64,000 nucleotides of DNA, taken from NCBI GenBank assembly GCA_043803105.1, contig JAZDKJ010000006.1, forward strand, positions 352,001 to 416,000, in the 5' to 3' direction. Source of the DNA: Candidatus Woesearchaeota archaeon (GTDB taxonomy: Archaea > Nanobdellota > Nanobdellia > Woesearchaeales > JAZDKJ01). Of the stretch, positions 19,654-51,875 are shown piece by piece. The notes under the pieces were generated by a model. It made no database searches and was not told the origin of the DNA. It saw nothing but the letters and a program-made list of their open reading frames with translations. A program made the translations under genes and the position numbers. Each line of letters starts with the position of its first letter. Within the stretch, counting starts at the first letter, position 1.

Positions 19654-19780
19654 TCCCCGAGGCCGGAGTCGAACCAGCAACCTTTCGGTAACGGCTGAGT
19701 GTTTTTCACATTCTGCACTGAGTGCAATATCAAAACACTATCCCTACAGCCGAACGCTCTAGCCATTGAGCTACTCGGGG
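19654..19780 (-). tRNA. tRNA-Tyr(GTA) with ~54-nt canonical intron
   Basis: CCCCGAG...TTCGGCTGTAG[..]ACCGAA...CTCGGGGA; C1-G72 and A73 typical of archaeal tRNA-Tyr. Confidence 0.93.
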
Positions 19781-19900
19781 AAGCTTTTTTCCTTAGGAAA
19801 AAACCTTGGAAAATATGTTTTTGCCAAGGCAAAAACGCTGCCTTTAAGGCAGCTAAAGTTGCGAGCTGACTTTTCAGCTCAGCTATTGAGCTACTCAGGG
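19781..19900 (-). repeat. Duplicated tRNA-Tyr 5' end plus four-hairpin leader
   Basis: 19881-19900 matches tRNA nt 1-20 at 18/20; followed by GAGCTGAAAAGTCAGCTCGCAACTTTA and three more palindromes. Confidence 0.8.
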
Positions 19901-19998
19901 ATAATTCAATGAATAACAAACAAGGGTCTTTTTATAAACATTTCTTATCTCTGTGTGTGCTTCTTTCTTCGGAACGACTCAGAATTTTGCTATTGCTA

Positions 19999-51673: not shown

Positions 51674-51875
51674 TGGGGCTGCTGGGATTTCCATGCTTCT
51701 AGGACGGTCTTTTGGCATCAGCCAAAAGCCTTTTCCCAGGTTTTTGCATATTGCAAAAAGCTGTTTGGACCCAGATTAGGAGGTTTTCCGCTGAAAACCT
51801 TAGGTCAAATGCCCCGAACCTCCAGTGATAGTTTCTCGAAGAGTTTCTCTCTTCTCCAAGTTACACTACAGCCCC
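51674..51875 (-). tRNA. tRNA-Pro(CGG) with three introns (~24, ~28, ~76 nt)
   Basis: GGGGCTGTAGTGTAACTTGG[..]CTATCACTGGAGGTTCGGG[..]ACCTCCTAATCTGGGTCCAAA[..]TCCCAGCAGCCCCA; T-loop reads TCC instead of TTC. Confidence 0.85.

Follow-up and report, generated by a model that had tools for sequence, protein, structure and literature searches.

How does a transfer RNA gene come by an intron at a non-canonical position, and where does the intron sequence come from? The question is raised by a 64,000-nt stretch of a Candidatus Woesearchaeota archaeon genome (assembly GCA_043803105.1, contig JAZDKJ010000006.1, positions 352,001 to 416,000; hereafter the window), in which the T-loop intron of tRNA-Pro(CGG) begins with a 33-nt hairpin module that recurs, inverted relative to transcription, in the leader of tRNA-Tyr. 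The initial annotation of the window, which had paired the two sequences, proposed that such palindromic modules move at the DNA level and supply or expand intron sequence. We present evidence that both probably (roughly 0.65, in our estimate) belong to a single family of short DNA elements, rich in hairpins and without coding capacity, which has spread as DNA in this archaeon and also in certain relatives. Members of this one short family are seen at the head of introns in tRNA genes and of an insert in 16S rRNA, inverted beside genes whose ends are duplicated, and at sites outside RNA genes, and they are missing from the orthologous sites examined in a same-genus genome.

A hairpin module shared by a tRNA intron and a tRNA leader

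The two 33-nt sequences are indeed present in the window, one at the start of the tRNA-Pro(CGG) T-loop intron and one abutting the 5' end of tRNA-Tyr(GUA) (Table 1). Aligned without gaps, they are identical at 26 of 33 positions, as originally reported. Both tRNA genes lie on the minus strand; the Pro module is sense and the Tyr module antisense with respect to transcription, in agreement with the opposite orientations already described, and in both copies a second hairpin of the TTTT-G/C-AAAA type lies downstream of the module. Six of the seven differences between the copies make up three compensated base pairs, and the seventh is in the loop. Two of these pairs (G-C versus T-A and A-T versus C-G) had been recognized before, but the count of two was short by one: the third is formed by the module's first base together with the N of CCTNGG, and it reads C...G in Pro but A...T in Tyr.

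Fourteen aligned copies define the module as a 12-bp hairpin, longer than that first described. Three base pairs (NAG/CTN') make up its base; above them come a C.C mismatch that never varies and an 8-9 bp T/A stem with a variable G/C top. GGAAAA follows, and after it, usually, further hairpins. Across the 12 pairs, every one of the 135 cells is standard-paired, and five pairs change on both sides. A covariation test and a comparison with randomized sequence had both been suggested when the pair was first noticed, and the similarity held up in each. In the former, none of 500 shuffles attained either the observed paired fraction or the observed covariation score, and controls in which the pairing was slid paired at 65% or less. 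Even the basal pair varies: C-G, A-T and G-C all occur in this genome, and one relative has T-A (locus L033). The asymmetric flanks NAGC and CCTNGGAAAA are conserved among copies.

Could two A/T-rich palindromes have come to resemble each other by chance? The initial annotation itself cautioned that A/T runs inflate the identity, and they do supply 10-12 of the 26 matches; yet they fail to account for the match. We searched both strands of the genome (G000; 1.56 Mb, 96% complete; its contigs are numbered here with the prefix C) and five simulated first-order Markov genomes of the same composition, counting ungapped matches of at least 26/33. The Pro module matched at 10 places in the genome, itself included, and the Tyr module at 8, versus none in any of the five simulated genomes. 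Moreover, an nhmmer profile built from 11 other copies, from which Pro, Tyr and a copy identical to Pro were left out, recovered both window copies on the correct strands (E 5.6e-8 for Pro and 5e-8 for Tyr); the next-best match in the window had an E of 0.2. The conserved flanks point the same way. Chance resemblance is refuted by the simulated genomes and the leave-out profile, and we give it next to no credence.

The module is dispersed through the genome

With an Infernal covariance model of the module (R1), which scores the Pro copy at 54.5 bits and the Tyr copy at 50.2 bits, we found 15 full copies at E ≤6.9e-8, plus weaker, split or "long" forms; nhmmer returned the same set. Some 22 copies were read in context and assigned to classes by eye. 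Ten of the 22 are sense copies at the 5' edge of T-arm inserts, in the tRNAs Pro(CGG), Pro(GGG), Leu(UAA), Ser(GGA) and Ser(UGA) and in five others. One, also sense, heads an insert in 16S rRNA after GGATTAGATA. Three are sense and extragenic and come directly after a 5' tRNA stub that ends in the D-loop (C6:187406, C10:28531 and C13:409). A further six are antisense and outside tRNA genes: at tRNA-Tyr, at C8:119662, at C8:7981, at tRNA-Thr and, twice, at tRNA-Ala. The last two stand at non-tRNA sites. When the relatives described below are included, intronic copies are sense in 18 of 18 cases, whereas extragenic copies occur in both orientations, which argues that the strand matters for intron function. 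The inverted copy at tRNA-Tyr is, in that orientation, not itself intron material.

The closest pair of copies links the two kinds of site. The Pro module, sense within its intron, is identical at 33/33 positions to the antisense copy in the trailer of tRNA-Thr (C12:123943-123975), from which we argue that copying in this lineage was recent. The homology is not confined to the module, and whole inserts can be aligned across tRNA species: in gap-lenient alignments, the inserts of Pro(CGG) and Leu(UAA) are identical in 66 of 74 aligned columns, and those of Pro(GGG) and the gene at C12:181546 in 85 of 92 columns. As in a family of introns, similar inserts are thus found across tRNA isotypes, and the module that they share exceeds the chance controls. 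Six "long" copies (Table 1) carry two extra hairpins, GCTCAGAAAACC...GGTTTTCTGGCAC and a G/C-rich one, nested between the first hairpin and CCTGGGAAAA. The stems of these are compensated between copies, so the family appears to be modular or nested; the nested hairpins fit the proposal that such modules expand intron sequence. The window contains no tandem repeats.

The insert in 16S rRNA is about 150 nt long (C8:150831-150983, or approximately 1332-1484 of locus L041), and its module has a longer hairpin top. Indeed, the Rfam small-subunit rRNA match at this gene covers 1598 nt for a model of 1478 positions. In the fold, the insert is bounded by a 9-bp inverted repeat, CAGCTTTTT/AAAAAGCTG, and TTAG/CTAA can form the central 4-bp helix of a bulge-helix-bulge (BHB), the structure recognized by the archaeal splicing endonuclease. 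In relatives, certain T-loop inserts are bounded by the same 9-bp inverted repeat; at the end of the Tyr-type insert stands another hairpin, hp4.

The module at the head of a T-loop intron

In tRNA-Pro(CGG), the 76-nt T-loop intron at position 59/60 opens with the module, which takes up precisely its first 33 nt. The in-silico splicing and aragorn check was made on this gene only: removal of its three introns yields a 73-nt tRNA-Pro(cgg) that aragorn accepts, and its exons can be aligned with the same-genus gene, whose T-arm has no intron. With its introns, the gene is missed by standard tRNA finders, and the Rfam scan of the window matches tRNA-Tyr only; across the 96% complete genome, these finders recover just 9 (aragorn) or 6 (Rfam, above threshold) tRNA genes. 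The minimum-free-energy fold of the Pro gene contains a 5-bp T-stem, a 3-nt AAU bulge, the 4-bp helix UCCA/UGGA, an AACA bulge and an outer helix GCUU.../...AAGC (h'), that is, the hBHBh' arrangement, in which the AACA bulge, at 4 nt, is one above canonical. A strict h-B-H search likewise recovers the 76-nt intron at 59/60. The insert therefore has the structural marks of a BHB intron, a canonical tRNA restored on removal and a 4-bp helix between two bulges. The genome has one EndA homologue (C4:37141-37398), and by this fold the insert would be spliced out by the archaeal splicing endonuclease. Hairpins homologous to hp2 of this intron follow the module in at least seven other copies, with their stems altered.

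The T-arm copies were put through a strict BHB test that asks for a 5-bp T-stem, a 4-bp helix and splice sites two bases beyond that helix. The pattern is present at 59/60 in 10 of the 16 T-arm copies (5 of 10 in this genome and 5 of 6 in relatives), and in all ten 0 or 1 nt separates the 5' splice site from the module that follows.

The spliced T-loop of tRNA-Pro(CGG) reads TCCAAAT (51764-51769 plus 51687, minus strand), as against TTCAAAT in the congener; position 55, normally an invariant U, is C. With this C, a U.G becomes a C-G pair with TGGA of the intron.

Extragenic copies between a gene end and its decayed duplicate

The Tyr module is the inner end of a 100-nt insert that folds into four hairpins (z = -4.6). 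A full-length homologue at C8:119662-119764 is likewise arranged beside another tRNA gene, with stems compensated in every hairpin. The Tyr insert sits between the complete, working gene and a decayed stub of the gene's own 5' end; the stub version and the gene version of that end each occur once in the genome. The TATA-like box that lies upstream of the stub is probably the original tRNA-Tyr promoter: in the same-genus gene, a TATA-like TTTATTAA is found at a similar distance, directly upstream of the intact tRNA-Tyr. Stub, antisense insert and intact gene would presumably be co-transcribed, with RNase P trimming the leader. The inverted insert itself would be unspliceable; it may persist since duplication of the 5' end has left the gene intact, and the former junction between gene and promoter would be marked by the stub.

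Extragenic copies are in general bracketed in this way, by a working gene end and its decayed duplicate. At the Tyr copy and at C6:187, the duplicate spans tRNA positions -1 to 20. Elsewhere it measures ~14 nt (C10), ~31 nt (C13), ~28 nt (3' end of tRNA-Thr), ~23 nt (3' end at C12:115) and, for the two copies at tRNA-Ala 3' ends, 28 nt (perfect) and ~17 nt, and a 26-nt repeat brackets the intergenic copy on C5. The repeat at C8:119 reaches at least 10 nt past the 5' end of the tRNA, and that at C12:115 reaches ~9 nt past the 3' end. These are not target-site duplications of a fixed, short length, as they range from 14 to ~31 bp.

Such loci might instead be relics of former introns. Had an intron-bearing gene been partly overwritten by an intron-less copy, either a processed tRNA or a paralogue, a stub plus hairpin would have been left behind with no need for transposition. 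The geometry of the repeats is suggestive in this respect, as they start or end near the mature tRNA termini and have their inner ends in the D-loop or T-arm, where introns sit. The three sense extragenic copies directly follow a stub ending in the D-loop, as at an intron start, and the Tyr stub, read in the tRNA sense, is followed by hp4 in the manner of a T-loop exon at C12:74583. However, six extragenic first hairpins are antisense, as against 18 of 18 sense among the intronic ones; non-tRNA copies carry repeats too; and the repeats at C8:119 and C12:115 run on past the tRNA ends. Moreover, the congener's tRNA-Tyr and tRNA-Pro are without an intron at those sites, and no reverse transcriptase was found in the 96% complete genome. 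We consider an origin from former introns quite improbable.

The T-loop exon just mentioned is an observation of its own. There hp4 of the Tyr-type insert (GAGCTGACTTTTCAGCTC; 19863-19880) is found on the other strand (C12:74583-74596), directly after the exon TTCAAAG of a tRNA gene at C12:74.5 kb. Either end of the element, in the orientation proper to it, can therefore stand first in an intron.

The inverted copies also call to mind the split tRNAs of Nanoarchaeum and Caldivirga, whose leaders resemble introns according to passages of Fujishima & Kanai 2014 (PMC4033280). Here too a tRNA-flanking sequence resembles the intron of another tRNA; unlike in those systems, tRNA-Tyr is complete, its leader copy is inverted and there is no partner half. 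If the inverted copies were leaders that pair in trans with sense copies and so assemble split or permuted tRNAs, one would point to the antisense copy before a tRNA-Thr 3' fragment, which is perfectly complementary, over 33 nt, to the module that tRNA-Pro(CGG) has behind its 5' part, and to the several loci at which inverted modules stand directly before tRNA 3' fragments. But the exons thus brought together do not match (Thr with Pro), the neighboring genes are complete and the fragments are decayed duplicates of those neighbors. For the Thr fragment, a 5' half with the required acceptor strand was sought; the only two tRNA-like candidates are each embedded in a long open reading frame (of 422 and 638 codons), and a partner half did not turn up. 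Trans-assembly is, in our judgment, barely credible.

Relatives and empty sites

Among 60 other genomes of the same order, R1 was positive in 10, each from a different family; in a phylum-wide sample it was positive in 12 of 150 other genomes, four of the 12 in another order of the class. Eighteen loci from these relatives were read. Sense inserts account for seven of them, six in T-loops and one in a D-loop; in two more the module comes immediately 3' of a tRNA gene, in another two a stub and the module are followed by the complete gene on the other strand, and one is an insertion at the start of a protein gene (L032); the remaining six are other or unresolved sites, one of them probably a false match in a coding region. 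At L032 (G057:C71:5271-5385), the module plus 54 nt lies at the start of a gene for a small Cys-rich protein, and 14 bp that take in the start codon, ATGCCACACCAATG, are duplicated exactly. The insert at this locus ends the upstream reading frame with TAA, and AAGGAGG stands 9 nt before a second ATG.

The sole other genome of the same genus (G001; 84% complete, 240 contigs) contains no module detectable with R1. All three of the orthologous sites examined there are empty. Its tRNA-Pro(CGG) has the same exons with only an anticodon-loop intron, and neither a D-loop nor a T-loop insert; its tRNA-Tyr has no insert and no stub upstream; and at its counterpart of the C5 locus the repeat is single and the module missing. 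In the same genome, two contigs, C38 and C30 (L037 and L038), come to an end within the tRNA-Tyr anticodon-loop intron, which may point to a repeat there that defeated the assembler.

The patchy distribution bears on whether the module is immobile, a host RNA signal for pre-tRNA or rRNA processing, such as a protein-binding hairpin, kept by descent and selection. Strong covariation of the hairpin would be in keeping with such a signal, and so would the placement of intronic modules, always sense and 0-1 nt from the 5' splice site. In addition, sense introns contain G.U pairs (C12:115068; the CAG/TTG base in L022 and L023) that the opposite strand would show as C.A. A processing signal is harder to reconcile with antisense and non-genic copies that have target duplications, with congener orthologues that lack the module and look functional, and with a presence in only 10/60 and 12/150 relatives. 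This explanation seems to us very unlikely.

The search for a mobilizing enzyme

What might move the element? The strongest rival to a mobile family, though still an unlikely one, starts from integrases. Under it, the extragenic copies are scars of attachment (att) sites, attL and attR, the module belongs to the att region of a larger element, and the T-loop introns came in through an intron-bearing tRNA mimic in attP, as in the model put forward for Caldiarchaeum. Most of the direct repeats do have one end inside the tRNA and the other 0-3 nt from the gene's terminus, like att identity blocks. Moreover, all three large tyrosine-recombinase genes (Table 1) lie 14-320 nt downstream of module-bearing tRNAs and on the same strand, an arrangement of the pNOB8 type as outlined in passages of Sugahara et al. 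2012 (PMC3293823).

Four observations do not fit attachment scars. Between the repeats there are only 40-140 nt of non-coding hairpins and no gene, the integrases being outside. At least nine tRNA species each have their own matching repeat, so that a separate attP would be needed for every target. Copies are found at a protein-gene start and at an intergenic site as well. Finally, the integrase family and the module do not co-occur: among the 60 relatives, none of the nine genomes with an integrase match at E ≤1.8e-45 has the module. As a mobilizer, the integrase was rejected on the ground that its family does not track the module in those 60 genomes. The three integrases were followed downstream for 4 kb, 16 kb and 21 kb without a second repeat of a tRNA end being met, and there is no module match near the single Y1 transposase gene (C6:210483).

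A possible route of intron gain

The DNA-level spread of the module is well supported, and we infer that the copies were made by insertion rather than by some other recombination. The idea of mobility and intron gain that accompanied the initial annotation is supported in part, by multi-copy spread in both orientations, target duplications, empty sites and a place at the head of BHB introns. Copies may have passed from extragenic sites into introns or in the opposite direction.

A sense module inside a gene would work as follows. Its AGCTTTT would pair with AGAAGC or AAAAGCT near the other end of the insert to form h', and the four bases just 5' of the 3' splice site would pair with the exon, as TTCG/CGAA in most T-loops and as TCCA/TGGA in tRNA-Pro(CGG). 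Together with the T-stem, these helices would make a BHB for the splicing endonuclease to cut, and the insert could be tolerated as an intron at 59/60. For a copy landing at the edge of a gene, 14-31 bp of target would be duplicated, one duplicate staying in the working gene and the other decaying to a stub.

In eukaryotes, introners are transposon-derived spliceosomal introns that multiply as DNA elements and are tolerated because they are spliced out. Tentatively, and at less than even odds, we propose that the module is the working end of an archaeal counterpart. Its own ends would supply the outer helix of the BHB, so that a copy arriving in the T-loop of any tRNA gene, with its near-palindrome TTCGAA, or at a fitting position in rRNA would be instantly spliceable; in other places, copies would persist just at the edges of genes, where the target is duplicated. 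The parallel is limited to function, as here a protein endonuclease acting at a BHB takes the place of the spliceosome and no partner transposase was found. The element is relevant in any case to the origin of non-canonical tRNA introns in archaea; if the comparison with introners is right, it offers a concrete route by which they are gained.

A number of observations weigh against a mobile element of this kind. Six of the 16 T-arm copies, those in both Ser tRNAs among them, fail the strict BHB test. Intronic copies are without flanking direct repeats; inspected by eye, the 3' ends of T-loop introns contain no repeat of the gene-specific T-stem, only the 4-nt complement of the loop. Most extragenic repeats end within 0-3 nt of a tRNA terminus, which suits att-type recombination or rescue by a processed copy equally well. 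Their lengths, 14-31 bp, are more variable than those of any transposase known to us, and we know of no mechanism that fits them. No mobilizing enzyme emerged from the integrases, reverse transcriptase and Y1 transposase considered, and of the 10 module-bearing relatives one has even a moderate match to the integrase family. As for the empty sites, G001 is distant (72% identity in a flanking gene), so that "empty" could mean loss, and in a genome 84% complete and in 240 contigs the absence of the family could partly reflect the assembly. Lastly, the T5-T7 runs inside the module should hamper archaeal transcription, which is odd for single-copy tRNA genes.

Relation to known elements and introns

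MITEs (miniature transposable elements with inverted repeats) and elements of the REP/PATE type are short, non-coding, multi-copy palindromic DNA elements of prokaryotes. Like MITEs, the family described here is short, non-coding and hairpin-forming, is found in both orientations, is patchy among relatives and is accompanied by direct repeats of the target; dispersed copies and filled versus empty sites are both found. Unlike MITEs, it has long repeats of variable length (14-31 bp), terminal inverted repeats that are short or absent in the extragenic copies, no partner transposase that we could find, and an intron niche in structural RNA genes.

Introns with sequences common to different tRNA species have been described in Thermoproteales, taken as a sign that introns are copied from gene to gene and ascribed to "large-scale intron transposition" (Fujishima et al. 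2010, as related in passages of Fujishima & Kanai 2014, PMC4033280, and of a 2026 Asgard preprint). The present introns resemble these, as described there, in that similar sequences occupy non-canonical BHB positions in different tRNA species of one genome. They differ in that the unit is also extragenic, occurs in both orientations and with target duplications, and reaches 16S rRNA and non-tRNA sites, and in that the host is a small-genome archaeon, not a crenarchaeon. The passages of PMC4033280 and of the Asgard preprint that deal with Thermoproteales introns mention no extragenic copies of them.

In Caldiarchaeum subterraneum, one locus ties both intron gain and the formation of tRNA gene fragments to an integrating 1.8-kb element, as set out in the parts of Sugahara et al. 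2012 (PMC3293823) that treat it. Both there and here a partial copy of a tRNA end lies beside a complete gene with inserted DNA in between, and integrase genes stand by tRNAs on the same strand. By the same account, however, the Caldiarchaeum insert is 1.8 kb and encodes a recombinase, whereas here there are ~22 copies of non-coding hairpins of 40-140 nt, with whose distribution that of the adjacent integrase family does not agree. The 2026 census of Asgard introns, in the passages bearing on this point, found no general route of arrival and left the question open. In the open full-text literature, DPANN and Woesearchaeota included (subscription papers and supplements lay outside the scope), we found no description of a short hairpin element that serves both as intron head and as an extragenic insertion with target duplications. 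The sharing of introns between tRNA species is thus already known, and the combination, as far as it can be read from sequence, appears new.

Table 1. Features of the Pro and Tyr loci and of related sites elsewhere in the genome. Positions are those of the window unless a contig (C) is given.
Feature	Position	Strand	Details
tRNA-Tyr(GUA), one anticodon-loop intron	19654..19780	-	Rfam RF00005 54.6 bits, model positions 1-71; aragorn tRNA-Tyr(gta)
Module (hp1), Tyr copy	19781..19813	+	antisense, abuts tRNA-Tyr 5' end; AAG, C, TTTTTTCC, loop TTA, GGAAAAAA, C, CTT, GGAAAA
Four-hairpin insert, 100 nt	19781..19880	+	hp1 19781-19813, hp2 19818-19835, hp3 19838-19852, AAAGTTGC spacer, hp4 19863-19880
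Stub, decayed duplicate of tRNA-Tyr positions -1 to 20	19881..19901	-	18/20 tRNA positions identical; 120 nt apart
TATA-like box TTTATAAAAA	19929..19938	-	29-38 nt upstream of stub
tRNA-Pro(CGG), four exons	51674..51875	-	exons 51875-51856, 51830-51813, 51784-51764, 51687-51674
tRNA-Pro(CGG), introns	51855-51831 (25 nt); 51812-51785 (28 nt); 51763-51688 (76 nt)	-	D-loop; anticodon loop; T-loop
Module (hp1), Pro copy	51731..51763	-	sense, first 33 nt of T-loop intron; CAG, C, TTTTTGCA, loop ATA, TGCAAAAA, C, CTG, GGAAAA
hp2 of Pro T-loop intron	51709..51730	-	GGCTTTTGGC TGAT GCCAAAAG
3' part of Pro T-loop intron	51688..51708	-	AGAAGC pairs with module GCTTTT (helix h'); TGGA with exon TCCA (4-bp helix H); terminal AA in 3' bulge
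"Long" copies	C8:7981-8063, C6:521388-521476, C6:303870-303953, C6:36784-36870, C7:13127-13218, C13:409-500		
Large tyrosine recombinases	C7:31119-32375, C10:28787-30073, C6:519961-521256	+, +, -	

Other observations

Downstream of the intergenic module on C5, there is a conserved non-coding stretch (C5:47146-47300; L020 in G014) in which the motif GGGAAAAAGAGGTGAT occurs twice and which is kept in both G001 and G014. Rfam has no family for the module context at C5 or at L020, so that the stretch may be a novel small RNA. A reading of the C5 copy as a CRISPR spacer was rejected, since no more than two repeats flank it.

In two relatives, module-like units occur two to three times within 130-260 nt (L035, G034:C48:17300-17570; L030, G056:C12:9507-9635), in one case right after the 3' end of tRNA-Leu. 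Some tRNAs of the genome under study have unusual loops. In tRNA-Thr(CGT), tRNA-Ala(CGC) and a second tRNA-Thr (C12:123849-123921, C6:303770-303841 and C6:525422), the D-loop reads AGTAGC, without the usual GG, and the T-loops of tRNA-Thr(CGT) and tRNA-Ala(CGC) read TGCAACT and TGCGACT in place of TTCRAAT. The tRNAs with these odd loops are the best-scoring in the genome, and the odd loops may therefore be a trait of the lineage.

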